A stretch of 64,000 nucleotides of DNA from an uncultured Gammaproteobacteria bacterium (GTDB lineage: Bacteria > Patescibacteriota > Patescibacteriia > S139-126), in the NCBI GenBank assembly GCA_964620905.1, contig CAZUKA010000001.1:158524-222523 (forward strand), in the 5' to 3' direction. The translations under genes were made by a program, and so were the position numbers. The notes under the pieces are model-generated. The model was not told where the DNA came from. It ran no database searches and saw only the letters and a program-made list of their open reading frames with translations. How positions within the stretch are numbered: position 1 is the stretch's first letter; each line of letters opens with the position of its first letter. Of the stretch, positions 34,058 to 64,000 are shown piece after piece.

Positions 34058-34061
34058 GTTT

Positions 34062-37019: not shown

Positions 37020-37020
37020 A

Positions 37021-37094: not shown

Positions 37095-37235
37095 TTAAAA
37101 ACTACGAATTTAAACCACAATTATGTGGTAAGGATTAAAATTGGATTTAAATAAGAAAAAAATAAGCTAAAATTTTTATAAACTTAGTTTTTCAAAGCAC
37201 TTATAAATCTAATAGTTTAATTTGTATTAGTCAAA

Positions 37236-38792
37236 TTAATCATCTAAAGAACTATCAACCAAAGAGCCACCTAAAATATCAATAAATTTATTTAGTTGTT
37301 GGCTGGAGTTTGTACTTTCTAAAGATGAATTTTTTGTTAGTTGAACTTTTATTTCTTTTAAATCAGAAAAAAAATTTTGAGAACAACTAATTAATTTTTC
37401 CAAGTTTTTCTTTTTTTCTATTAAATTTTTATGTAAATTATGTTCAACTTGAATAAATAAATTTTTGTCGGCAGTAAAATATATTTCAGCAGTTGTAATT
37501 ATTTTGGAAAGACTATAAAAATCTGGTAACAAAGAATCAACCAAATTATTTTTTAACTCTTTATTGATCAGATCTACTGGATTTAAGTTGATTTCGTTTG
37601 CTGAGGAGTTAATACTTTTTCGATCAGTTGTTGTTTTTGAATTATTTTTTGTATTTTCTAGTTCAAGCTCAACAGAGGGATTAACAATATCAAACTTTTG
37701 TATATTACTAGAAGTAATTTCTACTATAGCAAGTTCCAAAGGTAACTGACGAATAAATATGTTTTTAAACTTCGCCTGTTTATCTAACAATATTTCTAAA
37801 TGATTTTTTAGATCTACCAAACTACTCTGTCTAATTTGTTTGGTTAATTCATTGTATTGCTGATCAGTAAATAAATTTTTTAAATTGTCTATTTTTTCGC
37901 TAATTTTATAAAGTAAGGCAAAACGATAAAGTTCTATCAATTTGGTCAAGAAAAAATCGATATCCTCACCATTTTCTAGTATTTCATTAGTTAGGTTTAT
38001 TGCCTCATGAGTCTGACTAGTAAGTAGCAGCCGCCACAATTTAACTAATTGGTTGAGATTGGTGTTGGGTAGAACAAGATCAGCAGTGGTTTGATCAATT
38101 TTTTTATAATCCAAGCTGAGAAGTTGACCTAAAAATCCTTGAGCGTCACGCAGAGAACCAGAGGATAAAAATGCTATTTTTGCTAATACTTCATTATCAA
38201 CTTGATCAACGCCTTCTTGTTGACAAATAAAACGTAGATTATCGACCATCAACTGGTGAGATATTTTTTTAAAATCAAATCGCTGACACCTTGAAACAAT
38301 AGTTTCTGGTATTTTATGGGCAGCGGTGGTACAAAGGATAAAAATTGCATAATCAGGTGGTTCTTCAATTGTCTTAAGTAGTGCATTAAATGAAACATCA
38401 GTTAGCATGTGAACCTCGTCAATTATAAAAACCTTAAAACGAGCAATATTTGGCTGGTACTTAATTAATTCTTTAAAGTCTTTAATCTCTTCGATCTTTC
38501 TTTTGGATGCTGCATCCAATTCTATTAAATCCAAAAAATTATTTTTATTTATGGCTTGGCAAATTTCGCACCGATCACATGGTTCCCCTTGTTCATTTTG
38601 TTTACAATTGACGGCCTTGGCAAATATTCTAGCCGCGGTTGTTTTACCCACACCCCTAGGACCTGTAAATAAATAAGCATGAGAAATTTTTCCACTGGCG
38701 ACTGCCCGCGTCAAAGTAATTTTAACATGATTTTGATCAACCAAATCAGAAAATTTTTTAGGACGGTATTTACGATATAAGGTTTGTGACAT
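37236..38792 (-). CDS. dnaX: DNA polymerase III subunit gamma/tau
   Basis: 518 aa. AAA+ clamp-loader N-terminus with GPRGVGKTT Walker A, a DExx box, a zinc-binding C..C..C..C module, and sensor motifs. Confidence 0.9.
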   Translation of the reverse strand: MSQTLYRKYRPKKFSDLVDQNHVKITLTRAVASGKISHAYLFTGPRGVGKTTAARIFAKAVNCKQNEQGEPCDRCEICQAINKNNFLDLIELDAASKRKIEEIKDFKELIKYQPNIARFKVFIIDEVHMLTDVSFNALLKTIEEPPDYAIFILCTTAAHKIPETIVSRCQRFDFKKISHQLMVDNLRFICQQEGVDQVDNEVLAKIAFLSSGSLRDAQGFLGQLLSLDYKKIDQTTADLVLPNTNLNQLVKLWRLLLTSQTHEAINLTNEILENGEDIDFFLTKLIELYRFALLYKISEKIDNLKNLFTDQQYNELTKQIRQSSLVDLKNHLEILLDKQAKFKNIFIRQLPLELAIVEITSSNIQKFDIVNPSVELELENTKNNSKTTTDRKSINSSANEINLNPVDLINKELKNNLVDSLLPDFYSLSKIITTAEIYFTADKNLFIQVEHNLHKNLIEKKKNLEKLISCSQNFFSDLKEIKVQLTKNSSLESTNSSQQLNKFIDILGGSLVDSSLDD

Positions 38793-39332
38793 CTAACGGT
38801 TTTGTTTAATAATATTCTCTACAGCCGCCCATTGTGATTGGGTATTCTTCGGTACTAACATTATTACTTGATCACCATTTTCACCTTTAAAATAAGTAAC
38901 TGGGGCAGATAATAATTTAAAAGTTGCTTTATCAGTACGACCATAGTGTTGTTTTTTTTCTTCATCCAAGTAAAGTTCTCCAACTAATCGTTCTCTTTCA
39001 ACTGGTCCGATTTGTTTAAAAACAAACGAACCGTTGGGCAAAATTGTAAGCTTCAACATATCACCTTCTACCAATTTTGATTTAGAAGCGTAATTTTGTG
39101 GAATCAAATATTCTTTACCATCGGGACCAACCATTTTATCTCCGGTAAAAACCCCCTCAATAATCTTGACATCTGCTTCAACTTTTTCTTTTCCTTGACT
39201 ACGGGCCAATATAACTGGATCAAGATTATCTTTTTCTATCTGACCGGAAATAACTTTCTTAGCTAGATCTACTTGCAGTTGAATATTGTTTAAGATGTGT
39301 TTTATTTCTTCAATTTTATTTTCGTTTTTCAT
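38793..39332 (-). CDS. Hypothetical protein
   Basis: 179-aa ORF directly abutting dnaX. No recognisable motif. Confidence 0.4.
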   Translation of the reverse strand: MKNENKIEEIKHILNNIQLQVDLAKKVISGQIEKDNLDPVILARSQGKEKVEADVKIIEGVFTGDKMVGPDGKEYLIPQNYASKSKLVEGDMLKLTILPNGSFVFKQIGPVERERLVGELYLDEEKKQHYGRTDKATFKLLSAPVTYFKGENGDQVIMLVPKNTQSQWAAVENIIKQNR

Positions 39333-39363
39333 ATTTTTTGTTTAATATTTTAAATTTATTTTT

Positions 39364-41784
39364 TTAATATTTTTTTTTGGGTTTGCCATAATGCAATCTG
39401 GAAAAAGCAATTGATTTTTCCTTATTAATCTGTTCTCCGACTGGTTCACGTTGCGTATTAATATTAAAAGGTGTAACCGTAGTATTGTCAATAATCATCT
39501 TTAGATAGGCGTTAAACTTAGGAACATTTATGAGATCATATTGATCAAAAACCGGTTCAAACTGTTTTACTACAAAATCAGCATCTTCGGCTCCGATTCT
39601 AAAAGCAACAAATGTACCCACATTACCAAAAATTGCATCTCGAATTGAAGTGTCTCCCTGTTTAGTAAGTTGTCCTAAATATTGATTGGCTAAGATTAAA
39701 TTTAAACGATACTTTCTAGCCTCAGCTAAAATAACAGCTATACTCTCAGTAGTAAAATTTTGAAACTCGTCTATATACATATAAAAATCCTCACGTAATG
39801 ATTCAACTTGATTTGCTCGGCTCAGGGCGGCAATTAAAATTTTTCCTACCACAATCATCCCTAAAAGTTTACTATTAATATCACCAATTTTACCCTTACT
39901 TAGGTTGATAATTAAAATCTTCTTTTCGTCCATTACCTGCCTAAAATCAAAACTGCTTTGTTGGGAAGCTATTATTTGTCTCATTAAATCATTAGCAATA
40001 AATGGTGTTAGTTTACTTGTTATATAAGGTACCATATTAGCGAGTGCTGCTTCCCCACCAGCAGCTTGAGCTTCCTTTTGCCAAAAATCAATAACTGTGG
40101 GATTTTTGCATTTACTTAATTTCAATTTTCTAAATTGTTCATCTGCCAGGACTTTGGGGATTTCTAACAAAGTCATTCCCGAATCTGGGTCATCCATAAC
40201 CAAAAGCATAGCATTTCTCATATATTGCTCAAACATCGGCCCGCCAGTTGCTTTTAAATCATATAACTTATCAAAAATTGCGAGTAACTCGTTTACAACT
40301 AAGGTTTTTTGAAATTCATTAGAATATTCCAACATATTGATCGCCATAGGTCGGTCAGTATCAGCTGGATCAAAATAAATGACATCAGACCAGCGATGCT
40401 TGGGTATATTGCGTAAAATATCAGAAGCTAGTTCGCCATGTGGGTCAATTATACAACAGCCTGATCCTATAGCAATATCCTGAATGATCATGTTTTTCAT
40501 CATAGTTGATTTTCCAGTACCGGTTTGACCAATGATATACATGTGCCGACGGCGATCATCGGTTTTTAAACGAATTAAAACCTTTTCTCCCCGATATTCA
40601 CTCTCACCAATTACTATCCCCTCTGATGGCAAATTCACAGGTGGTGCATATTTTTTTGCTTCTAGCCAAGCAATGTTGGGAATATCGTTGTGACTATGAG
40701 GAAAGTGAAATACTGAGGCCAGTTCTTCAGTATTTAAAATTATTTTTCGTTTATTATCGAACCGTCGATAAATAAAATTTCTAATCAATTTAGAATGCCA
40801 GGTCAAAAAGGCTGATTGAAAACTATTACCATATTCATAAATACTATATTGAGAAAATGCCTGTAATATATCATTTAAATAAGCATTGGTTGTATCCTTA
40901 TCCTCGGTGGAGACAATCACCCGAAGGTTAGCCCCCAAGGCGGCTTTAGATAATTTCAATTCAATTGATTCAATAGTTTTTTGTTGTTGAGGGGTAAGTG
41001 AAACTGGTGTATTTGATTTATCTTTTTTATTTACGTCTTTGCTATATTTAAACCCTGAATATAGTAAAGAAAAAAATGAATTCACTGTTTTACTAAAAAT
41101 ATCATTATTTGCGGTGGTATTGACGTTTTCGTTTTTTTGTAATTTTTGCACCAACAACCTACCTTTCTGTCGCCAAGTACTACTGACTGGAATTAACAAT
41201 AGTTGGACAGCAGCACCCTCATTTTTCTTTAATTTAGACAAAGAATTTAAAATAGAATTTATCGGATCATTCTCCATTTGTGAATAAGTTTTGATGGGGA
41301 AAGCATTCAATTTTTTAAAGACAAAAAACCCGCCTGCTACCTGACTATAAGGTTTAAAAATATTATAATCTTCAACTTCATCAATTTGGGCAGTTGGATA
41401 TTGAGCATGAATTTGTTGAATTACAAACCTTTTAAGCTGTTTAGGAAGTGCAACAAAAAAATCTATTTTCTCATTGGCCGCCACTATTTCAAAACTAACA
41501 AATTTTTTGTGTGTACGAAAAATGATATCAATCCAAGAATTGCTTCTTAGTCCACCAATAGTGGCAAATAAACTTTCGGCTGAACCTAAAAGTTCTTTCC
41601 ATTTGATTTCCCCGCTTTTATTTTTGTCTAATTTAGGTAAACTTATTTTTAAAACTATAGTCTGAAAAACTAAACGGTAATAGTATTTTTTAAAAAAATA
41701 AATATATAAAACCACACCCACAACAATAAAAATTATTGGTAATAAAAATTTTAATAAATTAATAAAAAAATTTGTTGCAAACAT
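39364..41784 (-). CDS. Membrane-anchored P-loop ATPase of the TraG/TraD/VirD4 (type IV coupling protein) / VirB4-like superfamily
   Basis: 806 aa. N-terminal TM helices, Walker A GQTGTGKST followed by IIDPHGE, and Walker B DEFQNF followed by ARKYRLNLILANQ...LGQL...IRDAIFGNVGTF, a pattern characteristic of T4CP/DUF87 ATPases. Confidence 0.55.
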   Translation of the reverse strand: MFATNFFINLLKFLLPIIFIVVGVVLYIYFFKKYYYRLVFQTIVLKISLPKLDKNKSGEIKWKELLGSAESLFATIGGLRSNSWIDIIFRTHKKFVSFEIVAANEKIDFFVALPKQLKRFVIQQIHAQYPTAQIDEVEDYNIFKPYSQVAGGFFVFKKLNAFPIKTYSQMENDPINSILNSLSKLKKNEGAAVQLLLIPVSSTWRQKGRLLVQKLQKNENVNTTANNDIFSKTVNSFFSLLYSGFKYSKDVNKKDKSNTPVSLTPQQQKTIESIELKLSKAALGANLRVIVSTEDKDTTNAYLNDILQAFSQYSIYEYGNSFQSAFLTWHSKLIRNFIYRRFDNKRKIILNTEELASVFHFPHSHNDIPNIAWLEAKKYAPPVNLPSEGIVIGESEYRGEKVLIRLKTDDRRRHMYIIGQTGTGKSTMMKNMIIQDIAIGSGCCIIDPHGELASDILRNIPKHRWSDVIYFDPADTDRPMAINMLEYSNEFQKTLVVNELLAIFDKLYDLKATGGPMFEQYMRNAMLLVMDDPDSGMTLLEIPKVLADEQFRKLKLSKCKNPTVIDFWQKEAQAAGGEAALANMVPYITSKLTPFIANDLMRQIIASQQSSFDFRQVMDEKKILIINLSKGKIGDINSKLLGMIVVGKILIAALSRANQVESLREDFYMYIDEFQNFTTESIAVILAEARKYRLNLILANQYLGQLTKQGDTSIRDAIFGNVGTFVAFRIGAEDADFVVKQFEPVFDQYDLINVPKFNAYLKMIIDNTTVTPFNINTQREPVGEQINKEKSIAFSRLHYGKPKKKY

Positions 41785-50153: not shown

Positions 50154-51104
50154 CTATAAAGTTGTGATTGGCCTACTTTGAGTTATATAAAACTTACTCT
50201 TATGATAAGCCCATTCTATATCACACGCAAATTTATAATGTTTTTCAATTTGCCTACAAATTTTAGCAATCTCAACTATTTGTTTTCCGGTTAATTTTTG
50301 TCTAGATTCGTCTTTTTTTGGTACCGGCACCCATTTATTATCACCAGATACTGATTTTTGCACTATTTTTTTTGTTTGTTGAGCAATATTTATATCAATA
50401 ATAGAAAAATCTTGTTTATCAACCACGTAAGCATCAGGGGTGATTTGCCCAGACACTATAGCTTCTCCCAGCCCCCAGCCGGCTTCAATTATCATCTGGT
50501 TTTTGTCCATGGTAACAGGGTGAACAGTAAAGGCAATTCCAGAAATTTCAGATTGTATCATAATTTGAACCACCACAGCCACTGAAACTTTTGCTTTTAA
50601 GAGTTTTTTTTCATTTCGGTAAAATATTGCTCTGGGAGTAAATAAAGATGACCAGCAATTTTTTACGTTTTTAATCAAATTTTTTTCAGAGGTATTCAAA
50701 TAAGTTTCCAATTCTCCAGCCCAACTCGCAACTTTTGAATCCTCGGCTGTGGCTGAAGAACGAACTGCAACATATTTGCTTTTTAATTTTTTAAACTCTT
50801 TGATTATTTCTTTTTTCAAATTTTCAGGAAATTTGGCATCAACAATTAAATCTCGAATAACGTTTGAGGCTCGATCCACTGAATTGGTGTCTTTATAATT
50901 TACTTTAGATAGTTTAGCTAAGATGTCTTGATATAAATCTGTTTCAATTAAAAAGTTGTCAAACGCACTTGCTGAGATTACAAAACCATAAGGAATCGGT
51001 ATTTTAGCTTGCATCATCTCCCCCAAAGATGCTCCTTTACCACCCGCTATATTTACATCATTTTTATCAATTTGAGAAAAAAAGTGTATAAATTTTGTGT
51101 TCAT
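50154..51104 (-). CDS. Stand-alone PEP synthase / PPDK N-terminal ATP-grasp nucleotide-binding domain protein (PPDK_N)
   Basis: 316 aa. NIAGGKGASLGEM, VAVRSSATAEDS, LFTPRAIFYR, GWGLGEAIVSG and a C-terminal DIEWAYHKSKFYITQSRP motif track the PEPS N-terminal domain. The protein ends where the His domain would normally begin. Confidence 0.7.
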   Translation of the reverse strand: MNTKFIHFFSQIDKNDVNIAGGKGASLGEMMQAKIPIPYGFVISASAFDNFLIETDLYQDILAKLSKVNYKDTNSVDRASNVIRDLIVDAKFPENLKKEIIKEFKKLKSKYVAVRSSATAEDSKVASWAGELETYLNTSEKNLIKNVKNCWSSLFTPRAIFYRNEKKLLKAKVSVAVVVQIMIQSEISGIAFTVHPVTMDKNQMIIEAGWGLGEAIVSGQITPDAYVVDKQDFSIIDINIAQQTKKIVQKSVSGDNKWVPVPKKDESRQKLTGKQIVEIAKICRQIEKHYKFACDIEWAYHKSKFYITQSRPITTL

Positions 51105-52422: not shown

Positions 52423-52440
52423 TTATTAGTTATAAGAAAA

Positions 52441-52471
52441 CCCCTGATTATTTTAATCAGGGGTTATTTTT
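52441..52471. terminator. Bidirectional rho-independent terminator
   Basis: CCCCTGATTAttttTAATCAGGGG perfect 10-bp stem followed by a T-run, and preceded by an A-run. Sits between the convergent 51238 (+) and 52470 (-) genes. Confidence 0.55.
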
Positions 52472-53402
52472 ATATATTTATATCTAAATAATAACTCAAT
52501 AGTGCTGCTCCTAAAATATTATATGGCTCTTTTTTAGCATACATAGCCCGAGGATCATCATCAACTTCTTTATCAACTTCGAATATCCTTGGTTTTAACA
52601 TGTATAAAACAGAATCATTTTTCATTCTTTTCATATGTTCTTTGGTAATAGGAATATAACTCTTTAATATTAAATCTTCTTTTTCTTTGGGAAATTTATC
52701 AGTTGGTATAATTCCTTTTTGTAGACCACGAGTCAAAAATAATATGTCAACATCACCAATAAAATTATCTAACTTATCATAATAAATACCTTTGGCACCG
52801 TTTCTTTTTGCCTGTTCCTCAACTTCTTTTGGTAGCGGAAAATGACCAAGATCATCAATAAACAACTCGACGCCATAATATCCTAAGATTGGTACCATTG
52901 ATTTTGTTGCTCGATTTATTTCTGGAGTACCGTAAATACCTATTTTTGTTCCCTGTAAAGGTCTCTTTAAATAATGAAACATATTGCAAATTATCCAGGG
53001 TGTACCGACTGGGTGTTCTTTTGAACCACTACCGCAGTTTAAAAGTGGTACATATGAATACGGTGAACAACGTTCAGCAGAGTCATCATCTTGATGTCTG
53101 AGGGCTATAAGGTCGGAAAAACAACTGTATTCCCTAACTGTATCTTCTAAGCTTTCCCCTTTCTCCATCGAAAGCCCTTGTTCTCCGATTGTACCTATCC
53201 ATCCACCTCCCATACGTAAAATGCTTGATTGAAACATATTCATAGTTCTAGTTGAAGGTTGGAAAAAAAGGGTAGATACGATTTTTCCTCTTGCTAACTC
53301 TGGTGATATTCCATTTTTTTCAAAATACTCAAATCTTTTTAAGATTTCATCATAATCACTTTTTGATAAGTCGTTTGAAGAAATAAGATGTTTTAAAGGC
53401 AT
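52470..53402 (-). CDS. Aspartate/ornithine carbamoyltransferase-fold protein with degenerate catalytic motifs
   Basis: 310 aa. FQPSTRTMNMFQSSILRMGG (STRTR becomes STRTM). DTVREYSCFSDLIALRH matches the ATCase DTARVLS..D.IVIRH segment. NCGSGSKEHPVGT corresponds to NAGDG..HPTQ. The C-terminal YMLKPR replaces HPLPR. Confidence 0.55.
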   Translation of the reverse strand: MPLKHLISSNDLSKSDYDEILKRFEYFEKNGISPELARGKIVSTLFFQPSTRTMNMFQSSILRMGGGWIGTIGEQGLSMEKGESLEDTVREYSCFSDLIALRHQDDDSAERCSPYSYVPLLNCGSGSKEHPVGTPWIICNMFHYLKRPLQGTKIGIYGTPEINRATKSMVPILGYYGVELFIDDLGHFPLPKEVEEQAKRNGAKGIYYDKLDNFIGDVDILFLTRGLQKGIIPTDKFPKEKEDLILKSYIPITKEHMKRMKNDSVLYMLKPRIFEVDKEVDDDPRAMYAKKEPYNILGAALLSYYLDINI

Positions 53403-53421: not shown

Positions 53422-54345
53422 TTATTTTTTATTTATTATATCTTCAATTATTTTAAAGGGTATTTCTTCATTAAATTCAAATAATAAATTTCCTTCTTTA
53501 TCATCCTTTTTATAAATTAACCTTACACGTGATTCGTTTTTACCTTCAATATTATCTATCTCAACCTCAAAACCTTCAGCAAAATCTACACCTTGATTGC
53601 CCAAAGCTTTTACCAATTTATCCCTTTCCTCTTGACCTTTAATCTTCTCTACCACCCGACATAAAAATAAATCCAAAGCCCCAGCGTGACTACCAAGAAA
53701 TCTTTCCAGTTGTTTACCATACTTTTTTTCATTATTTTTGTCTTCAATCAATTTACCAAAATTTTTTGCAATTTTTGTATATTTATCAATTATCTGCGCT
53801 AAATTTCCTGCTGCTCTTAGATAAGTTGTGCTTTTATCATCACCTAATTTTTCAGCAATTTTATCACTTTCCTCAACCATCCATTTTAAACCAGAATTGT
53901 TACTATATGCTTGGTTGCTCTGTGATTCAAATTCATCATTATAAAAAGCAAATCCAAGTCTTTTATCTTCACCCAGTCTTGTTCCATATTCTAATTTTTT
54001 ACCGTCAATAAAATTTAGTTTTTCTTTTAATTCATCTAGTGTTTCTTCACCAGTAATATGATCTCTACCTATAGCCCCAGCCATTTCAAATCCCCCAGCT
54101 TGCTGTGAACGGATGATATTACTTCCCATTGCCAAAGAGGCATCACTTGCTGGATACTCGGATTTACCTTTTTCTAATGCTTGCTCTTTACCTTTACGTG
54201 TTAATTCTTGTTCAAGATTGGTTCTATCTGGTCTTTTTTCTTTCTCTCCGTGTCTAGTAATATGCAGTAAAACACGACTTTTAATATTTTCTTGTGGTTC
54301 TTTATTTTCAAAATTGGTTTTTGAAAAAAACTCCTTAAATTTCAT
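53422..54345 (-). CDS. Hypothetical protein, possibly histidine-phosphatase (PGM branch)-like
   Basis: 307 aa. N-terminal LLHITRHGEK...LT.KG.EQA resembles the RHG phosphohistidine motif of the histidine phosphatase superfamily. Weak. Confidence 0.3.
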   Translation of the reverse strand: MKFKEFFSKTNFENKEPQENIKSRVLLHITRHGEKEKRPDRTNLEQELTRKGKEQALEKGKSEYPASDASLAMGSNIIRSQQAGGFEMAGAIGRDHITGEETLDELKEKLNFIDGKKLEYGTRLGEDKRLGFAFYNDEFESQSNQAYSNNSGLKWMVEESDKIAEKLGDDKSTTYLRAAGNLAQIIDKYTKIAKNFGKLIEDKNNEKKYGKQLERFLGSHAGALDLFLCRVVEKIKGQEERDKLVKALGNQGVDFAEGFEVEIDNIEGKNESRVRLIYKKDDKEGNLLFEFNEEIPFKIIEDIINKK

Positions 54346-54350: not shown

Positions 54351-55799
54351 TTATTTAATAATCTTTATCTCTCCTGTATTTGCATCTATTTGTATTATAT
54401 CACCATTTTTCAATTTTTTTGTAGCGATTTTAGTGCCAATAATACATATCTTACCAAGCTCACGTGAAACCACAGCAGCATGTGACATCAATCCCCCAAT
54501 ATCAGTGACAACGGCTTTAGCTTGTCGCATTAAGTGGATATAATCAGGTGAAGTCATTGGTGCTACCAAAATTTCACTTGGTTTAATTTTTTTTAATTGA
54601 CGAGGCGAAAATACTACTCTGACAGTTCCGGTAATTTTTTTGTTAGAACGATTCGCAACTACACCAACTATTTTTTTATTATTCTGCTGGCTATCTATTT
54701 GTTTTAATATTGGATTGAAAAACTTTTTTGCTTTTTTACCAAAAATCAATTGGTAATTAGCATTTTTAATTAAAAATATAAAATATCCTTTTCTTTTTTT
54801 TAAATCGATTTGACCAATTTTATTTCCTTTTAAACCCAAATCTAACCATTCTTCAGCTGTATAATATAAAAGATCAGATTTTTTTACATGATAAAATACT
54901 GCTAAGGAATCCAATATTTTATCAAAACTACTGTGTGCCCACCAAGATTTTGCTTTTCTATCATCTTGCCACCATAAAGAAAATGATAAAGCTTGTGAAA
55001 TATTCAAATAATTTTTGGATAAATTATATTTATTTATTATATCTGCTTTATTTTTTATAACTCTATTTTTATAATAACTTAAATTATCATAAATTGATTT
55101 TGCTTTTTTCTTATTATATGATTTTAACCGAGCAAACCATTCACCAGCACCAATATAGTAAATCTGATAATAACTATTATCAACCCAGTTCCATTTTTTT
55201 TCGAAATTTTTTAAGGCAACTGAAGAAGCTTTTATATTTTTTTTGCTAAAATATAATTTAAGAAGTTCAAGTTCATTTTGTTGATGAAAACTTAAATCTT
55301 CTGGTGTTAATAAAACCTCAACTATTTTATCAATTTTTTTTACATCCACGCCATCACGTTTCAATAAATTAGCTAAATATTTTGGTGCGGAAAAGTTGGC
55401 TATTTCATAAATTAATGACAATCGCCAAAATGGTATCAAGTGATTATACCATTCTTTGGTTGTTTGTTTTAATATCTTTTTATTAGTTATATTTGTTTTT
55501 TGAAGCCTTTTTGCAGCAACTGATATATTACTAATTATTTTTTTATATTCGTTCCAAATAATTTTTCTCTTTTTTTCTGGTAATATCCACTTTTCAATCG
55601 CTTCATAACCGTATTTTTCCATTAACTCTTTTTCCCAATAAAAGGTTAGACGATCATGATCATATAAACCAATCAGATGTGGCCATCTTATACCATGAAT
55701 TACCATACCAGTAGGTTTAAACCAAAACGAGGGATATAATATCCTTGCATCTATCGGCCCCCATTGGTCAATAGTATTTTTTTTATAAAAATAAGACAT
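54351..55799 (-). CDS. Paralog 1 of 7: novel N-terminal domain + C-terminal PEP-utilizing-enzyme mobile (phosphohistidine) domain
   Basis: 482 aa. The C-terminus (GTVRVVFSP...ILVAPMTSPDYIHLMRQAKAVVTDIGGLMSHAAVVSRELGKICIIGT) is the PEPS/PPDK swivelling His domain with the catalytic His. The N-domain carries WWQDDRK and W.W.DNSYY motifs. Confidence 0.7.
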   Translation of the reverse strand: MSYFYKKNTIDQWGPIDARILYPSFWFKPTGMVIHGIRWPHLIGLYDHDRLTFYWEKELMEKYGYEAIEKWILPEKKRKIIWNEYKKIISNISVAAKRLQKTNITNKKILKQTTKEWYNHLIPFWRLSLIYEIANFSAPKYLANLLKRDGVDVKKIDKIVEVLLTPEDLSFHQQNELELLKLYFSKKNIKASSVALKNFEKKWNWVDNSYYQIYYIGAGEWFARLKSYNKKKAKSIYDNLSYYKNRVIKNKADIINKYNLSKNYLNISQALSFSLWWQDDRKAKSWWAHSSFDKILDSLAVFYHVKKSDLLYYTAEEWLDLGLKGNKIGQIDLKKRKGYFIFLIKNANYQLIFGKKAKKFFNPILKQIDSQQNNKKIVGVVANRSNKKITGTVRVVFSPRQLKKIKPSEILVAPMTSPDYIHLMRQAKAVVTDIGGLMSHAAVVSRELGKICIIGTKIATKKLKNGDIIQIDANTGEIKIIK

Positions 55800-55800
55800 A

Positions 55801-57189
55801 TTATTTTATTATTGTAACAACTCCATGATTGGCATTTACTTCCACTCTATCGCCGTCTTTAATCACCTTAGTCGCTATTTTTGTACCAACCACGCAGGGT
55901 TTTTTCAGTTCTCGTGCCACAATGGCTGCATGTGAGGCAATACCACCTTCATTAGTCACAAACGCAGCCGCTTTATACATAGCCGGTATATAGTTCGGAT
56001 GTGTTGTGTTGGCTATAAGAATATCACCTTTTTTTACTCGTTTTATATCATGGTAACTTTTTATTATTTTTACTTTGCCTCTAGCTAATCCTGTATAAGC
56101 ACTTAGGCCTTGCAATACTACTATTTTTTTTGTATTTAATTCTATTTTTTTTATTATTTCCAAATATTTTTTTATTTTTTTATCAATCACCCAAGTTTCC
56201 AATGTAAAACTATTTCCTGTTATTATGACCTTGTGTTTTTTTCTATAAGCAATAATATCTGATGGTAACTGATTCTGTACTAAACAATCACTTATTTCTT
56301 TGAAACTTAAGTAACCAAGATCATTACGATCAATATTAAAACGCATAGCTATAGTATCAAACAAAAAAGTCCAATTATAAACATATTGCCTTCTAACATC
56401 GTCACGAAAATCTTTGAAAAATATAATATAAGGCGCCAAATCAATATGATATTTTTCTTGTTTAGTGGGTTTAAGTAGTTTGTATAATTTCTGGTGTGAT
56501 ATATTTTTTATCTCATTCTTACTGATGCTTTTCTTCTTAAACTGCTGTATCCATTTTTTATCAATCGGACGATACCAAATTGCAGACCAACTACGTAAAA
56601 ATTGATATTTATCTATAAGTTTGGATATAGGAAAATTTGACTGTAAATCTTGTTGTAATCTGATAATGGCTGTTGTTCGCCAACTTTTATATATAGACGA
56701 CATAATTTCCTCATACCTATTTTCTAATCCTCTCTTTTTTATCAACTTACTAAGTATGTTTTCTGAATCAATTTGCCACGTTTCTATACCCCACCAAGGC
56801 CAAATACTAAATCGATAATTTATCTTATCAAAACCAGTCAGAAAATCTTCTAGAGCTTTAATTTGCCACTGAAAGGAATCTGTGTATTCAAATTTTTTCC
56901 AATAATTAATTTTTTTATTATATTTTTTTATTATTTCCTTACCCTCTATATAATATTTCTTAGCTTGATCAACACTTTTAAAAAAATGTTTATAAATAAT
57001 TCTACCAACTTCTAATTCATCAACAGAGAGATAATGAGTAAGGATTTTATTTTCAATTATAGTAAAAAATGGTTCTTTTATTTTATTTTCAACCAAACGT
57101 GAACAATCAATAAAAACTTTGTCTAAAACAGATATTGTTGCGATATCAACACCTTCTCGAGTAATTAATTTTTTCCATTTATATTTCAT
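55801..57189 (-). CDS. Paralog 2 of 7: N-terminal variable domain + C-terminal phosphohistidine domain
   Basis: 462 aa. C-terminus ...TTHPNYIPAMYKAAAFVTNEGGIASHAAIVARELKKPCVVGT. Confidence 0.7.
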   Translation of the reverse strand: MKYKWKKLITREGVDIATISVLDKVFIDCSRLVENKIKEPFFTIIENKILTHYLSVDELEVGRIIYKHFFKSVDQAKKYYIEGKEIIKKYNKKINYWKKFEYTDSFQWQIKALEDFLTGFDKINYRFSIWPWWGIETWQIDSENILSKLIKKRGLENRYEEIMSSIYKSWRTTAIIRLQQDLQSNFPISKLIDKYQFLRSWSAIWYRPIDKKWIQQFKKKSISKNEIKNISHQKLYKLLKPTKQEKYHIDLAPYIIFFKDFRDDVRRQYVYNWTFLFDTIAMRFNIDRNDLGYLSFKEISDCLVQNQLPSDIIAYRKKHKVIITGNSFTLETWVIDKKIKKYLEIIKKIELNTKKIVVLQGLSAYTGLARGKVKIIKSYHDIKRVKKGDILIANTTHPNYIPAMYKAAAFVTNEGGIASHAAIVARELKKPCVVGTKIATKVIKDGDRVEVNANHGVVTIIK

Positions 57190-58748
57190 TTTGGTAAATA
57201 AATTTTTCCATTATTGGCATCAACTTCAATCAACTGCCCGGTTTCAACTACCTTAGTGGCAATTCTAGTTCCTATTACACAAGGTTTCTTAAGCTCCCTA
57301 GATACTATAGCCGCGTGGGTGGTTATACCACCTTGTTCGGTAACAATAGCGCCTGCTCGTTTCATTGCTGGGACAAAATCAGGGGTTGTATTATTAGTAA
57401 CTAATATTTCACCTGTTTTTAACTTACTCAAATCTTTAATATTTAAAATTACTCTAGCTTTTCCGATAACTTTCCCTGGACATGCAGTTACACCATTAAT
57501 GACTTTGGTATTTTTATTTACTTTTTCAAATATATTTCTGTCAATTTTATTAAATTCATTATTTTCAAAAAATTTCCAACCTTTTGGACACACATAAAAT
57601 GCACATCCCTTTTGTCTATTTTTTACCTTTATTTTGTTAATCTTACCATGTAAAATTAAATCTTTCATCTCTGGATCATAAGTAAAACAAATATCTTTTT
57701 TATCAATTTTATAACGTCTGGCTAATTCATTTAGAATTGTAAAAATATAATGATTGGTTCTAAAAACACCAGACTTTCTTGTATCTTGCCACTTAGTAAA
57801 AATATCCGTGTATTTAATCAAATTTTTAAAATATAAATTTAATTTTAATTTTTTTATTAATAAATTCTTAGTATACAAATTTTTTGATTTGTTACTTTCT
57901 ACCTTATATTTTTTCAGTATATCTCTTTCAGTTAAAAATAATCTCCTTGCTTTCTCAATAAAATAGAAAGTTTTCAATGGCTCTGAATCATAATAACTAT
58001 TTTCTACCCAATAATATTTTTTTTGATGTTGATCAAATAAGTTTAAAAAATTTTTATTTTCACAAATAAAATTAATAAAATTTTTTTTACTTTTTAAATG
58101 AGTATATATTTTTTTATTTTTTCCAATTTTTAAGCATAGTTGCAAAAGTCCTACTAATTCTTGCTGTGTAAAGGTATCATAAACAGGCAGTGTTAAAATA
58201 TGTAACTTTTTTTCTATATTTTTCTCTTTTAATCTATTTAATTCCTTGGATAAAAGTTCTAAATACCAATCTTTTTCTTTATTTGATAAAAATGAGTCAA
58301 CTAAATATGGTAATGTACTTTCATAAATATACGCTTCTTTTAATTCTTCATATAACTTATATATAGTTTCAGGTTTCGTATTTTTTAGATCAATATTATC
58401 AAATTTTTTATAAATTTTTTTTAGCTGTCGCCAATCTTTTTCCCACTGCTTATACCAGGAATCAATTTTTCTTGGATTATTTTTTATTAATTTGAGGATA
58501 CGACCGCGCACACGTTCTAAATCACGATTATCCCAAAACCAATGCAATCTATTATTCTCAAGATAGCAAAAAGCGGTACGATAAGTGTTTGGCACTCGTT
58601 TATTGATATAGTATACACAGCCGTAACCTACTAAAAATAATGGGTTTAGTACCCCAGACCAACTTTTTTCATACCAATCTCTATTTGAGATATAGTCTTT
58701 AGTAAAAATTTTATACGATTTTGCTAATTCTGGTATTTTCATTATCAT
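57186..58748 (-). CDS. Paralog 3 of 7: N-terminal variable domain + C-terminal phosphohistidine domain
   Basis: 520 aa. C-terminus GGITTHAAIVSRELKKPCVIGT. The N-domain has TKWQDTRK and YYWVENSYY motifs. Confidence 0.7.
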   Translation of the reverse strand: MIMKIPELAKSYKIFTKDYISNRDWYEKSWSGVLNPLFLVGYGCVYYINKRVPNTYRTAFCYLENNRLHWFWDNRDLERVRGRILKLIKNNPRKIDSWYKQWEKDWRQLKKIYKKFDNIDLKNTKPETIYKLYEELKEAYIYESTLPYLVDSFLSNKEKDWYLELLSKELNRLKEKNIEKKLHILTLPVYDTFTQQELVGLLQLCLKIGKNKKIYTHLKSKKNFINFICENKNFLNLFDQHQKKYYWVENSYYDSEPLKTFYFIEKARRLFLTERDILKKYKVESNKSKNLYTKNLLIKKLKLNLYFKNLIKYTDIFTKWQDTRKSGVFRTNHYIFTILNELARRYKIDKKDICFTYDPEMKDLILHGKINKIKVKNRQKGCAFYVCPKGWKFFENNEFNKIDRNIFEKVNKNTKVINGVTACPGKVIGKARVILNIKDLSKLKTGEILVTNNTTPDFVPAMKRAGAIVTEQGGITTHAAIVSRELKKPCVIGTRIATKVVETGQLIEVDANNGKIYLPK

Positions 58749-59905
58749 ATTTTTTTGATGATTCCATTGGTTGCATCAACTTCTACTCTATCCCCGTTTT
58801 TAAAAATTTTTGTTGCCATCTTAACATTAATTATACATGGAATTTTTAACTCCCTGGAGACTATAGCTGCATGAGATAATAATCCCCCTACTTCTGTGAT
58901 AACAGCACCGGCCTTTCTAATCACTGGCATCAAATCAGGTGAAGTACTGACTGATACCAAAATATTACCCTGATTAAAATTAGACATCTCTACCTTTAAA
59001 CTTTTTTCCAATCGGTGAGTTATTATTCTTACTTGACCAATTATTTTTCCTGGAAAAGCTGTTTTACCCTTTATTTCTTTTTTTATATTGTAATTATTTT
59101 TTTCTTTTACTGGTTTTATATCTAATCTATAATTTGATTTTAAATAATATAGACAATAATACTTAATTCTATTATCAATTATTTCTTTGGGTACCTTTCT
59201 TCCTTTTAAAAGAAAATTTTCAAGTTCTTTATATTTTAAATTTTGGGCTTGTAATACAGTAAAATTCATACGATTACCTATCTCTTCATATAGTTTCTTT
59301 ACCTTCAAAAAAGTATTTAAATATACGTCATGCATTTCCAATCTACGTTTACCAATTAACCTAAGGTCATTAATTGTTTCTTTTAATTTAGACGCGATTT
59401 TAAAATCTGATTCATCATATTCACCAACTAACAACTTGTTTAAGCTGTTTTTTTTATTTTGTGGTATTTCCAAAATTATTTTGTCAATTAATTTTTGATA
59501 AACATCTGGTCTCGTAAACCTGTATACGGCCAATAATTTAGTATAGGAGTCAAAAAAATCTTTGAATAACATAAAAAGTCTCCTGTTATTTAAATTAATC
59601 AATCTAAATTTTTTTATATAATTAGCTATTTTAAAAACTTCTTTTTCAATTTTTTTTGTGGTAGCTATGTATTTTATTACATAATTATGATCTTGATATT
59701 TTTTGTAACCTATTATATTTACTTCATTTTCAGTTTTTTTGTTTATATAAAAAGTTAAACTTTGATTTATGTTTCGAAGATAATGCCTACCATAACTATG
59801 ACCTAATATTTTTTTTCTAACTAAAACATCACCATTAAAAAGCATTTCAGAAAATGTAAAAGGAACACTATCTATTGTCCAATCTTTTTTAAATTTACTA
59901 CGCAT
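58745..59905 (-). CDS. Paralog 4 of 7 (short): N-terminal variable domain + C-terminal phosphohistidine domain
   Basis: 386 aa. C-terminus GGLLSHAAIVSRELKIPCIIN. Confidence 0.65.
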   Translation of the reverse strand: MRSKFKKDWTIDSVPFTFSEMLFNGDVLVRKKILGHSYGRHYLRNINQSLTFYINKKTENEVNIIGYKKYQDHNYVIKYIATTKKIEKEVFKIANYIKKFRLINLNNRRLFMLFKDFFDSYTKLLAVYRFTRPDVYQKLIDKIILEIPQNKKNSLNKLLVGEYDESDFKIASKLKETINDLRLIGKRRLEMHDVYLNTFLKVKKLYEEIGNRMNFTVLQAQNLKYKELENFLLKGRKVPKEIIDNRIKYYCLYYLKSNYRLDIKPVKEKNNYNIKKEIKGKTAFPGKIIGQVRIITHRLEKSLKVEMSNFNQGNILVSVSTSPDLMPVIRKAGAVITEVGGLLSHAAIVSRELKIPCIINVKMATKIFKNGDRVEVDATNGIIKKI

Positions 59906-59907
59906 AA

Positions 59908-60918
59908 TTAAAGCTTTCTGATAATCCCTTTATTGGCATCGACTTCCACACTATTGCCATCTCTGAAGATATGAGTCGCTATCTTTGTACCAATAATACA
60001 AGGTTTTTTCAGCTCACGTGACACAATTGCCGCGTGACAGGTAATTCCCCCTTCATTGGTAACAATTGCCGCTGCCTTCTTCATTGCTACTAAATAACGA
60101 GGGTCTGTCATTGAAGCTACAAGGATTTCATTCTTATTAAACTTATTTAAATCATTCATCTTCCTAATTATTTTTACGACCCCCTTTGTCTTACCTGGAT
60201 AAGCGATGCTACCGCGAAGAAACATTTTTTCTTTCACTAGCTTTTTCTTTAATTTAAAGTAAAGTTTTCCACGGCTATAAAAATTAAACTTACGGTCTTT
60301 GATTCGCAATAATAAAAAATCTTTTCTATTACTTAAATTATTAGGTAAAATGGAAGATGATAAGAAGTGTTGCAATTCACTGTCAGTCATATAGATCAAG
60401 CTCCCTTTTTTAATCTGTCTTTGACGTTCGATTATAGCTAATAGTTCAAACTCATAACTAAATGACAATTTATGTACGTTTTCAAATTTTTTTCTTGATC
60501 TCAATAAGAGTTTCTTTTCTGATTCATTCAAGTACTGACAATATACTGGCAAATAAGCTGACAAAAAAATTATTTCAGTGAAGTGAGACATCCATTTATG
60601 TAATTCCACTAAACTTAATAACGAGTTACTTGTTCTAATGGATAAAAACTCATTAAATTCCTTTAACCGCGTGAACTCAAAATCAATGAACTTCTTTAAA
60701 CCTTTAGATCCTTGGCATTTAAACCAACCATTTGTAAATTTTTTTAAATCATTTTCAACAAGATAATAATAAAATATATCTTTCTCTACCAATATATAAA
60801 AAGGATTCCAGTGAAAACCCGAGCGTTTCTCAAGATATTTACTTTGAAGCTGATTAAATACTACGGATGTGCCTAAAACAGAATAATCGCGTTGATGAGA
60901 TTGGTAATTTAATTTCAT
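59908..60918 (-). CDS. Paralog 5 of 7 (short): N-terminal variable domain + C-terminal phosphohistidine domain
   Basis: 336 aa. C-terminus GGITCHAAIVSRELKKPCIIGT (PEPS-type TCHAAI). Confidence 0.65.
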   Translation of the reverse strand: MKLNYQSHQRDYSVLGTSVVFNQLQSKYLEKRSGFHWNPFYILVEKDIFYYYLVENDLKKFTNGWFKCQGSKGLKKFIDFEFTRLKEFNEFLSIRTSNSLLSLVELHKWMSHFTEIIFLSAYLPVYCQYLNESEKKLLLRSRKKFENVHKLSFSYEFELLAIIERQRQIKKGSLIYMTDSELQHFLSSSILPNNLSNRKDFLLLRIKDRKFNFYSRGKLYFKLKKKLVKEKMFLRGSIAYPGKTKGVVKIIRKMNDLNKFNKNEILVASMTDPRYLVAMKKAAAIVTNEGGITCHAAIVSRELKKPCIIGTKIATHIFRDGNSVEVDANKGIIRKL

Positions 60919-62363
60919 AATTTTTTAATTATGCCTTTATTTGCATCAACTTCCACTCTATCGCCATCCATCAATACTTGAGTGGATATTTTTGTTCCTA
61001 TAACACAAGGGATGTCCAACTCACGAGAAATTACTGCCGCGTGACAGGTAATTCCTCCTTCATCAGTGACAATAGCCGCGGCTTTTCTCATCGCTACTAT
61101 ATAATCTGGCAGGGTCATTCCACAAACCAAAATATCATTTTTTTTGACTTTTTTTAGTGCTTCAGCAGCACCGCTACATACCTTTACGGTTCCAATTACT
61201 TTACCTTTTGAAACTGGAATACCGCATATAAAATCTCCTATTTTTTTATTAGTAGTTTCTTTAATAAATTTGTTTTTAATTTTTATTGCATCTTGACCAC
61301 TATAAATAATTTCTTTGTTTTTTGTGATGTAAACAGCCGCTCCTTTTTTTCTTTTACTAATTAATTTATAATTAACTTCATTACCTTTCAATAAATCAAT
61401 AACTTCATTGAAAAATAACCACTCGAGATCATTAAGTTTCAATTTTTTTCGTCTAGATATTTCTTTTAGTAATAGATAAAAAGAATAAACGGATTTGGCT
61501 TGCATTTCTTTTCTTAACTCGTGAATTTCCGCATATTTATCAAAAAAATCAAGCCAGTGAGTTATTTTTTTATTGATTAGAAATTTATTAATAATTTTGT
61601 TTTTTTCTTCTTTTAAATTTTTCAAATAGTTTTTATCTCGAACCAAAATCTTTTTTAAATCAGTCTTTTTCTGATACTGTTTAATTATTTTTCTAAAATC
61701 ATCGTAAACCAATGGCTTCATGTTTTCCCAACCAATTTTTGTCCACCAATACTTATTATATAACTTACTAATCTCATGTTCATATATTTTTTTCTTTAAC
61801 GCCAATCTTATAATACTTATTTCTTCTCGTTTACTAAAAGAAAGATAAACCGGATTGGAAAGAATATTATAAATGTAATTTAAATTATCCATTTTTATTT
61901 TTTTTGAATAATTTTTAATTTTCGATTTTAAAAATATTTCTGACACAAAATCAATCGCGTCAACATCTGTGTTTAATAAACCATGGGCAGGAGAAGTTTG
62001 GTCAATCAAAAAATAAAAAAAATTTAAAATTTCTTTATCAGATAAATTTGTTAAGTCTGTATTTCTGATCTCTTCTGAAGCTTTAAAAGCTTTAGCAATT
62101 AAGTTGTATATTTTATTTAGGTGATAATCTTTATTTTTCTTTATACTACAAAATTTAAGTATTTTTTTTCCTAAATTTTGTAATTCCTTTTTCGACCATC
62201 CCCACCAAAGTTTATCACCAATATTTATATAAAAAGTTGAATAAAATTTGCCAATATTCAGCCTACTGCTATAATTTTTTAAACCATAAAATACAATATC
62301 AGCCCGAAAAGGTTGGATTGTACCACGCGTATACCACACCCAGATTATTCTATCTTTTTTCAT
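60915..62363 (-). CDS. Paralog 6 of 7: N-terminal variable domain + C-terminal phosphohistidine domain
   Basis: 482 aa. C-terminus GGITCHAAVISRELDIPCVIGT. Confidence 0.7.
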   Translation of the reverse strand: MKKDRIIWVWYTRGTIQPFRADIVFYGLKNYSSRLNIGKFYSTFYINIGDKLWWGWSKKELQNLGKKILKFCSIKKNKDYHLNKIYNLIAKAFKASEEIRNTDLTNLSDKEILNFFYFLIDQTSPAHGLLNTDVDAIDFVSEIFLKSKIKNYSKKIKMDNLNYIYNILSNPVYLSFSKREEISIIRLALKKKIYEHEISKLYNKYWWTKIGWENMKPLVYDDFRKIIKQYQKKTDLKKILVRDKNYLKNLKEEKNKIINKFLINKKITHWLDFFDKYAEIHELRKEMQAKSVYSFYLLLKEISRRKKLKLNDLEWLFFNEVIDLLKGNEVNYKLISKRKKGAAVYITKNKEIIYSGQDAIKIKNKFIKETTNKKIGDFICGIPVSKGKVIGTVKVCSGAAEALKKVKKNDILVCGMTLPDYIVAMRKAAAIVTDEGGITCHAAVISRELDIPCVIGTKISTQVLMDGDRVEVDANKGIIKKL

Positions 62364-63843
62364 CTATTTTTATTATGCCTTTATTTGCATCAACTTCTAC
62401 TTTATCCCCATCCTTAATTATATCTAAAATTCCCTGTACTCCAACTACAGCAGGTTTCCCTAGCTCTCTTGAGACAATTGCTGCATGACTGGTAATTCCA
62501 CCTTCTTCTGTAATAACCGCGCCTGCTTTTCTCATAAGAGGAACATATTCTGGTCTAGTATTCGGCGCTACCAATATCTCCCCTTTTTTTAATTTATAAA
62601 AATCACGTTTATCTTTGATAATTTTTGTTCTTCCAACAGCAATACCAGGAGAGATTGGCAAACCAGTAAATATATTTTGGTTGCTAAATTTTTTGTTTAA
62701 AGATTTTAGTAATCTTATCCTTAATTCATCTTTAATAATAATCAAATTGTCTTTTTTTGGAATATAATAAATAATTCCATTAACTCTGCGTTTTTTTATT
62801 TCTAACCATTCTTTTTTTTCAAAATTAAAAGCTTTTGAATATTCACGCCAATCTAAATATTCAATAACAGATAAAGGTATATTACATCTTCTTGATAATT
62901 CTTTAGCAAATCTTTTTAAAATTTTTCCAGCTATCTGATTAGCTGCTTTTCTATCATCTCGCCAGGTAGAAATAATATTTAGAAAATCTGCAATTTTATA
63001 TAATTCTGATTTCTTATTTCTTTTTATTTTTATGTTTTGGTGTTTAATCTTATGTAAACGTTCCTGAATAAGACGTTTATAAAAATATGATAATGGCAAA
63101 CTAACAATTGAGCTGTAATCATTATGTAACCAATCAAACTCATGTTGATGATTTTGTAAAAGTCGATAAAAATGGGGGTATTTATCTTTCAGGTTGTCTA
63201 ACTGAATTCCTTGATTTATGCTCTTATTTAGTGGATATATTTTTTTTGATAAATTGACTAAATTATTAAATTTTGTCTTTTCTTTTATAAAAATAGTTTT
63301 ATAGTCGTGATTAAATAAACTATTTAAATCTGACTTATAGTTAATTAAATTATTTTTTTTAAAAAAAATGTTTAAAAATTGATCACTATAATAATCAAAC
63401 GCATCATGAAAAATTGCATTTTGCCATAACCGAAGATAACATTTAGAAAAACTTTCAAAATTTAATATTAATTTTTTATCAGAATACTTTTTTAAATCTT
63501 GATTTTCTAAATATTTAACTTTTTTTACAAAATTTTTCAAATTATTTATTAACCAAAAATTTCTTGCAGATTTAATAAAATTTTTGTTTGACTTTTGTTT
63601 TTTAATATAAAAATTGGCTACTTTGATAAGATTATTGACACTAAGCCAATCATTCATAAAATCATCTTTTATATCTAAAATAATATCACGGTAATATATG
63701 TTTAAAGGTTTATTTTTTAAATAAAAATTTCCACATGCAGATAAAGGGTAAGATCCATAAAATAATTTTGCAGCTAAACCTTGACGGTACCATTTAATAT
63801 TTTTAAAATGTATTAAATTTATCTTATTATCTTTTTTTGACAT
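62350..63843 (-). CDS. Paralog 7 of 7: N-terminal variable domain + C-terminal phosphohistidine domain
   Basis: 497 aa. C-terminus GGITSHAAIVSRELGKPAVVGV. The N-domain has TWRDDRK and DWLHNDYS motifs. Confidence 0.7.
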   Translation of the reverse strand: MSKKDNKINLIHFKNIKWYRQGLAAKLFYGSYPLSACGNFYLKNKPLNIYYRDIILDIKDDFMNDWLSVNNLIKVANFYIKKQKSNKNFIKSARNFWLINNLKNFVKKVKYLENQDLKKYSDKKLILNFESFSKCYLRLWQNAIFHDAFDYYSDQFLNIFFKKNNLINYKSDLNSLFNHDYKTIFIKEKTKFNNLVNLSKKIYPLNKSINQGIQLDNLKDKYPHFYRLLQNHQHEFDWLHNDYSSIVSLPLSYFYKRLIQERLHKIKHQNIKIKRNKKSELYKIADFLNIISTWRDDRKAANQIAGKILKRFAKELSRRCNIPLSVIEYLDWREYSKAFNFEKKEWLEIKKRRVNGIIYYIPKKDNLIIIKDELRIRLLKSLNKKFSNQNIFTGLPISPGIAVGRTKIIKDKRDFYKLKKGEILVAPNTRPEYVPLMRKAGAVITEEGGITSHAAIVSRELGKPAVVGVQGILDIIKDGDKVEVDANKGIIKIDEKR

Positions 63844-64000
63844 TTTTTTGAAATAATATTACCTCTAATCAAATGGTCTTAAAATGTTTTTTTAAACAAT
63901 TATACCAACTGGTGTTTATAAAAACACCAGTGATATTATTTACTTGATTAATTGTGATGATTAAAATATTTTCTAAAATAAATTTTTCAAACCCTCCCAC

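Follow-up and report, generated by a model that had tools for sequence, protein, structure and literature searches.

What does a small genome gain from carrying seven copies of one half of an enzyme? This question is raised by a 64,000-nt stretch of contig CAZUKA010000001.1 (hereafter the window), in which seven consecutive minus-strand genes at 54351-63843 encode paralogous proteins that all end in the phosphohistidine-bearing swivel domain of phosphoenolpyruvate (PEP)-utilizing enzymes. The open reading frames (ORFs) lie exactly where an earlier reading of the sequence (the original prediction) had placed them. By analogy with published two-component enzymes, and with a probability of roughly 70%, we interpret the locus as a hub-and-spoke version of a water dikinase related to rifampin phosphotransferase (RPH), in which the seven proteins would be acceptor subunits served by a single ATP-grasp protein encoded nearby. 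The seven genes are named W7 to W1 in the order of their transcription, and loci fetched for comparison carry labels of the type L001, L003 etc.

62350..63843, minus strand: W7, 497-aa acceptor subunit, first gene of the operon, with an N-domain resembling the rifampin-binding domain of RPH and a swivel His domain (PF00391, E 4.4e-27)
60915..62363, minus strand: W6, 482-aa acceptor subunit (PF00391, E 1.5e-23)
59908..60918, minus strand: W5, short-form acceptor subunit of 336 aa whose N-domain is reduced
58745..59905, minus strand: W4, acceptor subunit of 386 aa, its N-domain shortened internally (PF00391, E 8.1e-24)
57186..58748, minus strand: W3, 520-aa full-length acceptor subunit, taken as the reference copy
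55801..57189, minus strand: W2, 462-aa acceptor subunit (PF00391, E 3.8e-25)
54351..55799, minus strand: W1, 482-aa acceptor subunit, last of the seven (PF00391, E 9.4e-24)
50154..51104, minus strand: stand-alone ATP-grasp protein (PPDK_N), 316 aa, proposed as the shared ATP-binding partner, matched by PF01326 over the whole protein (E 1.5e-97) and encoded together with ProRS and MreB in another transcription unit

The predicted acceptor subunits and their catalytic positions

Each of the seven proteins has one C-terminal match to PF00391 (E 4e-27 to 1.5e-23; 82.6-93.9 bits against a cut-off of 23.1), and the catalytic His of the GGxxxHAA motif is invariant in all of them. In W7, the swivel hidden Markov model (HMM) covers residues 388-493. 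The Pfam scan gave no match to either PF01326 (ATP-grasp) or PF02896 (PEP-binding barrel) in any of W1-W7. The original prediction of an intact C-terminal His domain in all seven copies, and of neither ATP-grasp nor PEP-binding barrel in any, is borne out by these results. In a survey of the family, comprising 169 modules from 56 non-redundant loci aligned to a family HMM, the catalytic His is retained in all modules except one (168/169).

The two halves of the proteins differ strongly in their conservation. In pairwise comparison the window paralogs share on average 49% of their swivel and 20% of their N-domain residues, in agreement with the strong divergence of the N-domains that had been noted before, and conservation per position reaches 2-3.3 bits in the swivel compared to about 1 bit in the N-domain. 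A conserved swivel joined to a divergent substrate domain has likewise been described for the RPH superfamily (PMC4844700). Such a strong conservation would be expected if all swivels must dock on one and the same partner.

The N-domain HMM of the family covers residues 1-375 of W7, 15-365 of W6, 29-343 of W2 and 36-362 of W1, while in W4 only residues 13-126 and 203-258 are matched. The relationship to RPH is evident at the level of profiles: profile A2 matches RPH residues 491-866 with E 6.5e-33 at an identity of 19%. In this comparison the Q/R-D-x-R-K motif of the family aligns on Y-R666-E667-Y-P-K670 of RPH, which places the acid and the Lys of D-x-R-K on Glu667 and Lys670. Both findings are in line with the original description of the proteins as RPH minus its ATP-grasp domain. 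In RPH, Arg666 and Glu667 touch both the phosphate being transferred and the catalytic His, within a hydrogen-bond network that also includes Lys670; with Ala in place of Arg666 or of Glu667, rifampin is no longer phosphorylated (PMC4844700).

Among the approximately 145 aligned modules, 111 have an acid (D/E) and 111 a Lys at the respective motif positions, and the adjacent Arg is present in 128. Four window copies display the canonical motif (W1 QDDRK, W3 QDTRK, W6 HELRK, W7 RDDRK), with Q, R or H at the position of RPH Arg666. W2 (KDFRD) and W4 (NDLRE) keep the acid and the Arg and have lost the Lys position; W5 reads FENVHK where the consensus of its subfamily is YEDVHK, i.e., with Asn for Asp. 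The recurring W[QR]D.RK motif of the original prediction is therefore canonical in four copies and altered in two, and the 336-aa copy has a motif specific to its subfamily instead.

Structures were predicted for two of the seven window copies. For the W3 model, RPH alone matches over the full length; 396 residues are covered and the catalytic block is aligned. The predicted fold of the N-domain resembles that of the RPH rifampin-binding domain, the comparison with which had been proposed in the original prediction, and is followed by the C-terminal swivel.

The proposed ATP-grasp partner and its possible reaction

In the vicinity of the array, PF01326 is matched only by the 316-aa neighbour. 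Its PDB sequence matches are PEP synthase (PEPS; 8a8e, E 5.6e-68), RPH (5fbs, E 3.9e-55) and HpeI (9goj_A, E 3.8e-46, residues 4-314), the last being the ATP-grasp half of a two-component enzyme. The original prediction had named this protein as a candidate for charging the array in trans, and its relatives lend support to such a partnership. P0107 (802 aa) consists of a grasp 60% identical to that of the window fused to a W3-like module (33% identical). Pfam further identifies single uninterrupted ORFs in which one PPDK_N domain is followed by eight (L040, 3761 aa), four (L052, 2019 aa) or two (L026, 1311 aa) PEP-utilizers domains; the largest is located at 6353-17638 in a Woesearchaeota metagenome-assembled genome (MAG). 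Smaller multi-module fusions are found in L031 (1233 aa) and L045 (1154 aa).

Linkage between separate genes points in the same direction. A grasp gene whose product is 69% identical to the window grasp directly follows the array in L003, another stands after nine modules and a PTA gene in L006, and the grasp is adjacent or nearly adjacent to modules in L008, L011, L018, L020, L022, L023, L024, L030, L035 and L054. The number of modules per locus has a median of 3 and a maximum of 12, with three or more in 30 of the 56 loci, and there is never more than one grasp gene per fetched locus. Among those 30 loci at least 14 include the grasp within the fetched DNA, which is a lower bound as many loci end at contig edges. 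Module-to-grasp ratios range from 1:1 pairs (L022, L024, L030, L035) up to 12:1; the window and its adjoining contigs hold seven acceptor genes and one grasp gene. Fusion and linkage thus favour the grasp as the common partner, which would charge the acceptors in trans.

The reaction could proceed as follows. The single ATP-grasp protein (50154-51104) would bind ATP, and the mobile C-terminal His domain of any of the seven acceptors would dock on it and attack the beta-phosphate, forming a pyrophospho-His. The gamma-phosphate would be freed as inorganic phosphate (Pi) and AMP would leave. The phospho-His domain would then swing back to its own N-domain, in which the acid/Arg/Lys cluster (acid and Lys corresponding to RPH Glu667 and Lys670) would position the phosphate for transfer to a hydroxyl of the acceptor molecule. 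The seven N-domains most likely bind different acceptors, because they are only about 20% identical to one another, and these acceptors are probably small molecules taken up from the host or the environment. This reading is supported here by domain content, fold, catalytic positions, linkage to one grasp and purifying selection; the catalytic cycle itself, the charging of all seven copies by one grasp and their distinct specificities we infer by analogy.

Several observations weigh against this interpretation. The full acid/Lys motif is present in only four of the seven window copies, and the losses of the Lys in W2 and W4 and of the Asp in W5 indicate that some copies may work slowly, be specialised or lack catalysis. 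In the swivel domain (W3 residues 470-481, for example), a Thr as in PEPS occupies the second position ahead of the catalytic His in 136 of the 169 family modules and in four of the seven window copies; RPH and HpeH have Met at this point, and regulation or partner use may differ from theirs. A DUF299-type regulator was not seen among the recurrent neighbours of the arrays. The window grasp lies outside the array operon, 3.2 kb away, and an M20 peptidase gene of opposite orientation as well as a terminator-like hairpin stand between them. In 16 of the 30 multi-module loci a grasp was unseen in the fetched DNA, although its absence from them is not demonstrated because many loci end at contig edges. 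Finally, it is mechanically unexplained how one N-terminal grasp would reach eight swivels in a chain of 3761 aa.

Module turnover, neighbouring genes and alternative readings

The relatives of the array proteins are overwhelmingly found in metagenome bins of Patescibacteria (candidate phyla radiation, CPR) and of DPANN archaea (Woesearchaeota, Nanoarchaeota, Micrarchaeota, Iainarchaeum), with few bins under other labels; all taxon names are those of the bins and may be wrong. In their sources the relatives are called "PEP-utilizing enzyme", "phosphohistidine swiveling domain-containing protein" or "phosphoenolpyruvate synthase". The W3 N-domain alone recovers 670 cluster representatives at E <= 1e-3 among 1.84 billion.

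For 158 of 163 modules the best N-domain match is located in another locus. W3 and W5 belong to orthologous subfamilies of their own with 30-45% identity, while the window paralogs share 14-26% in the N-domain; the closest N-domain relative of W2, in L009, is 48% identical, and distant genomes contain orthologs of single module types with 35-48% identity. The matches in other loci and the W3 and W5 subfamilies show that the paralogs are old. Orthologous modules have dN/dS values of 0.11-0.30, similar to the grasp (0.12), and are under purifying selection. An origin by recent lineage-specific duplication or hypervariation was rejected on the basis of these matches, subfamilies and dN/dS values.

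The content of the arrays nevertheless turns over quickly, as evident by comparing the window with its close relatives L086 (5598-14450) and L087 (7057-13106), which have W3 orthologs of 77% and 86% identity, respectively. The flanks are kept, with the M50 peptidase upstream in both and the M20 peptidase and the grasp downstream in L086, but W5, W4 and W2 are missing from both arrays and other modules are in place. W6 orthologs are 73-74% identical in the two loci (dN/dS 0.11-0.13), and the W1 ortholog in L086 is 63% identical (dN/dS 0.24). The W7 ortholog in L087 is 91-95% identical and split into two ORFs; its counterpart in L086 is only 38% identical. The check for the same array in related genomes therefore recovered the flanks and some of the modules, but not the complete set. 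Single-linkage clustering of 196 module N-domains resulted in 94 clusters with no shared order, and a fixed set of seven module types in a conserved order was not found in view of these clusters and the differing content among relatives.

Spacing between the genes from W7 to W1 ranges from -14 to +2 nt, with overlaps of up to 14 nt. It is compatible with the translational coupling that had been claimed, and we would still treat the coupling as presumptive. The array is more AT-rich than its flank, as originally noted, with a GC content of 0.245-0.30 compared to 0.32-0.36 at 48-54 kb. The suggestion that it runs past the window edge, with more copies beyond 64000, did not hold: contig L001 of the same genome has genes for Peptidase_M50, RRF, a BNR/sortilin-like protein and DNA polymerase III delta' directly upstream of W7, and the array consequently has exactly seven members. 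Its boundaries and the genes that follow it are:

63908..63931, no strand: inverted repeat with a 10-bp stem, in the 157-nt stretch upstream of W7
53422..54345, minus strand: putative divergent member of the histidine-phosphatase superfamily, 307 aa, 5 nt downstream of W1, with RHGE, R79 (second Arg) and GSH motifs conserved in alignment A4
52470..53402, minus strand: transcarbamylase-fold protein, 310 aa (OTCace_N, E 2.5e-25; OTCace, E 1.1e-6), last gene before the terminator-like hairpin
52439..52465, no strand: terminator-like hairpin, bidirectional, with a 12 bp stem (consensus match only)

Judged with the gene order of L001, the inverted repeat probably terminates the M50 peptidase gene that lies upstream, and marks the upstream boundary of the array. 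The hairpin at the other end would terminate a transcription unit reaching from W7 to the transcarbamylase-fold gene. No Rfam match was found near the array, including the W7 leader, and the sole Rfam RNA in the window is one tRNA; a riboswitch or other known RNA that might name a ligand was rejected on these grounds.

The 307-aa protein is probably encoded in the same operon as the array. By itself it has no Pfam match; the A4 profile, built from this protein and seven relatives, matches PGAM-like and phosphatase structures (3eoz, E 9.3e-7) only over its N-terminal 63 positions, and the ortholog in L054 passes PF00300 (E 5.4e-6; 26.7 against 21.7 bits). Homologs are located inside or beside arrays in eight loci. 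The 310-aa protein falls below the NCBIfam cut-off for aspartate carbamoyltransferase (148 against 237 bits), and its homologs adjoin arrays in L009 and L010. STRTM replaces STRTR in its sequence, and HPVG replaces HPxQ. Other recurrent neighbours, counted over the 56 loci, are TrmB regulators (7), CTP_transf_like/FAD_syn (5), PTA_PTB (phosphate acetyl/butyryl transferase; 4), HD-domain proteins (4), flavokinase (4) and NUDIX (4). The PTA_PTB genes are embedded in or abut the arrays of L006 (17042-18016), L011 (1917-2891), L019 (3-650) and L025 (8846-9850), three of them DPANN loci and one labelled Aminicenantes, and possibly hint at acyl-phosphate chemistry. With 3-8 occurrences in 56 loci, the neighbour counts are too small to name a pathway.

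We also have to consider that the same chemistry serves resistance or detoxification, with each module phosphorylating a different antibiotic or toxin in the manner of RPH and protecting an epibiont on antibiotic-producing hosts. The only full-length structural relative is indeed an antibiotic-resistance kinase, and AT-richness together with a module content that differs at one locus between close relatives is what accessory genes tied to a particular environment typically show. Yet the family is equally expanded in DPANN archaea (L006, L016, L017, L040), in which targets differ from bacterial ones, the RPH model yields only 36-76 against 999 bits, and module orthologs at 35-48% identity in distant genomes suggest conserved metabolic substrates rather than an arms race. 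PADLOC, the library of which covers phage defence only, returned no matches, which does not favour a resistance battery either and led us to reject an anti-phage defence system. Overall we regard a battery of this kind as unlikely. The reactions of PEPS and of PPDK (pyruvate, phosphate dikinase) are reversible. In the direction of glycolytic PEPS/PPDK the modules would harvest energy-rich phosphometabolites such as acyl and enol phosphates (X-phosphate + AMP + Pi -> X + ATP) and let fermenters poor in ATP recycle their AMP. PEP synthase is the nearest match of both swivel and grasp (8a8e; profile, E 4e-49; grasp, E 5.6e-68), enzymes of acyl phosphates (PTA_PTB) are found in or abutting the arrays of L006, L011, L019 and L025, and the transcarbamylase-fold gene that closes the window operon recurs in L009 and L010. 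HpeH alone, moreover, exchanges phosphate between phospho-substrate and substrate (PMC12167813). The case is nonetheless purely circumstantial: characterised RPH-type enzymes yield low-energy phosphomonoesters and are effectively irreversible, and the enrichment of the neighbours is slight (3-4 of 56 loci, uncorrected for multiple testing). ATP formation as the regular direction is accordingly an improbable explanation of the arrays.

Should the proteins be phosphocarriers or regulators instead of enzymes, the His domain would relay phosphate in the style of Enzyme I of the phosphotransferase system (PTS) or of a phosphorelay, the helical N-domains would be scaffolds for protein interaction and the histidine-phosphatase-like protein would act as a SixA-like reset. 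The RPH match, which spans 396 residues and aligns the catalytic block, the conservation of the acid/Arg/Lys motif in most of the 169 modules and the lack of PTS or two-component partners among the recurrent neighbours render this very improbable. Matches and names speak for a genuine split PEP synthase (pyruvate, water dikinase) serving gluconeogenesis, as the best NCBIfam and PDB sequence matches of grasp and swivel are PEP synthases and relatives are so named in their sources. We give it next to no chance: PF02896 is found neither in the seven genes nor in the grasp nor in any of 40 window ORFs scanned, PEPS matches cover the swivel only (e.g., residues 408-517; 82-129 against 598-740 bits), and the fold of the N-domain is RPH-like. 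With no PEP-binding barrel among the ORFs scanned, this candidate was rejected.

A wider extension of the hub-and-spoke dikinase is speculative, and we consider it doubtful. The arrays may constitute a combinatorial phosphotransfer system confined almost entirely to ultra-small CPR/DPANN symbionts, in which one grasp "engine" serves up to a dozen swappable modules, some of them joined in polyproteins of up to 3761 aa. It might replace conventional kinases in trapping or salvaging host metabolites, or run in reverse to gain ATP from AMP, with module sets exchanged between lineages and tuned to the host. CPR and DPANN organisms account for much of microbial diversity; their genomes measure about 0.5-1 Mb, and a life on metabolites taken from hosts is assumed for them. 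For such genomes the outlay is large, as about 9.5 kb of a 717-kb contig consist of seven paralogs of one enzyme half, and relatives have up to 12 copies or giant fusions. If one grasp charges many acceptors, this would be a modular multiplication of kinase specificities, undocumented so far for this enzyme class. The identities of the acceptors would directly reveal what these symbionts scavenge. Metabolic reconstructions that deduce gluconeogenesis or phenol degradation from array genes would also be put right, these genes being annotated at present only with the name "PEP-utilizing enzyme" or with the misleading names PEP synthase and phenylphosphate synthase. The system is tractable, given soluble proteins, a simple His-labelling assay and a published HpeHI protocol.

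Elsewhere in the window three further observations were made. At 17169-19280 (plus strand), a 703-aa class II aminoacyl-tRNA synthetase (tRNA-synt_2 and OB anticodon domain) carries a C-terminal HD phosphohydrolase domain (E 1.2e-8), which is an unusual fusion. A SecD-PPIC-type peptidyl-prolyl isomerase (rotamase) fusion is encoded at 14010-15710 (plus strand). Clustered at 33332-41784 (minus strand) are genes for a sortase, a surface protein of 939 aa with DUF11/SdrD repeats, a tRNA, an ATPase resembling DNA polymerase III gamma/tau and a coupling protein of the VirD4/TrwB kind; such a set for the cell surface and for type IV secretion presumably fits an episymbiotic CPR lifestyle.

Comparison with known systems

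The closest counterparts in architecture are the two-component RPH-like dikinases HpeHI of Rhodococcus, PpsAB (phenylphosphate synthase) of Thauera and CreHI of Corynebacterium, for which a split function and the inactivity of a His mutant have been published (PMC12167813). They display the same division into a stand-alone ATP-grasp (HpeI/PpsB) and a rifampin-binding-domain-like protein with a C-terminal swivel, the His motif of the HpeH/PpsA type being T/SxxGGxxxH (PMC12167813). The window grasp matches HpeI (9GOJ) over its full length with E 3.8e-46, and RPH is the only full-length structural match of HpeH, likewise for W3. The differences are considerable, however. PpsAB, CreHI and HpeHI combine one acceptor with one grasp, whereas the window and its adjoining contigs have seven to one; HpeH has 71 kDa compared to window acceptors of 336-520 aa. 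Against the PpsA-like PRK08296 models of NCBIfam, which we assume to be a proxy for the PpsA/HpeH-like family, the window proteins score at best 83-102 bits where the cut-offs are 578-730, and only the swivel and a short linker (about 100-135 residues) are aligned. The hosts are CPR and DPANN lineages here, and an aromatic-degradation context is lacking.

RPH itself (5FBS, 5HV1) is one chain of 865 aa with the grasp fused N-terminally, whereas here the grasp is a separate gene. On the RPH models NF041857 and NF000283 the window proteins reach 36-76 bits against cut-offs of 999 and 1700, with no grasp in the same chain. The position of RPH Arg666 is occupied by Q, R or K in the family, which has an extra invariant Arg before the Lys, and the Met that RPH and HpeH share two residues before the His is replaced by Thr in most modules. 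PEP synthase and PPDK have this Thr in common with the family; the ATP-grasp and the swivel are closest in sequence to archaeal PEP synthase, and a His-mediated dikinase cycle is expected in both. In contrast, PEP synthase and PPDK possess a PEP/pyruvate TIM barrel and a central swivel, while the window family has no barrel, a C-terminal swivel and an unrelated acceptor fold, and the low scores given above were obtained with the PEPS models TIGR01418 and NF005057. The prodiginine ligases PigC, RedH and HapC belong to the same RPH-like superfamily, and W6 aligns with PigC 621-880. In these ligases three domains are fused into one protein of about 880 aa (window scores 57-79 bits against a cut-off of 1300), and phosphorylation is coupled to condensation in a pigment pathway, which is absent here. 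The window proteins would work in the manner of HpeH or PpsA and yet by their sequences fall outside those families, failing the cut-offs for RPH, PEPS, PigC/RedH and PRK08296.

In the literature searched, the CPR/DPANN arrays have no description beyond a KEGG-style label in one metagenome study of DPANN, in which such genes were called "phenylphosphate synthase" and no phenylphosphate carboxylase was found (PMC8091004); its set of MAGs includes the bin carrying L006 and L012. The original prediction had not recognised the arrangement as any system already described. Split dikinases as such are already published (PMC12167813), but within the literature searched this CPR/DPANN clade, with its arrays of one grasp for many acceptors, its short-form subfamily, its fused multi-module polyproteins and its rapid turnover of modules, appears to be new.

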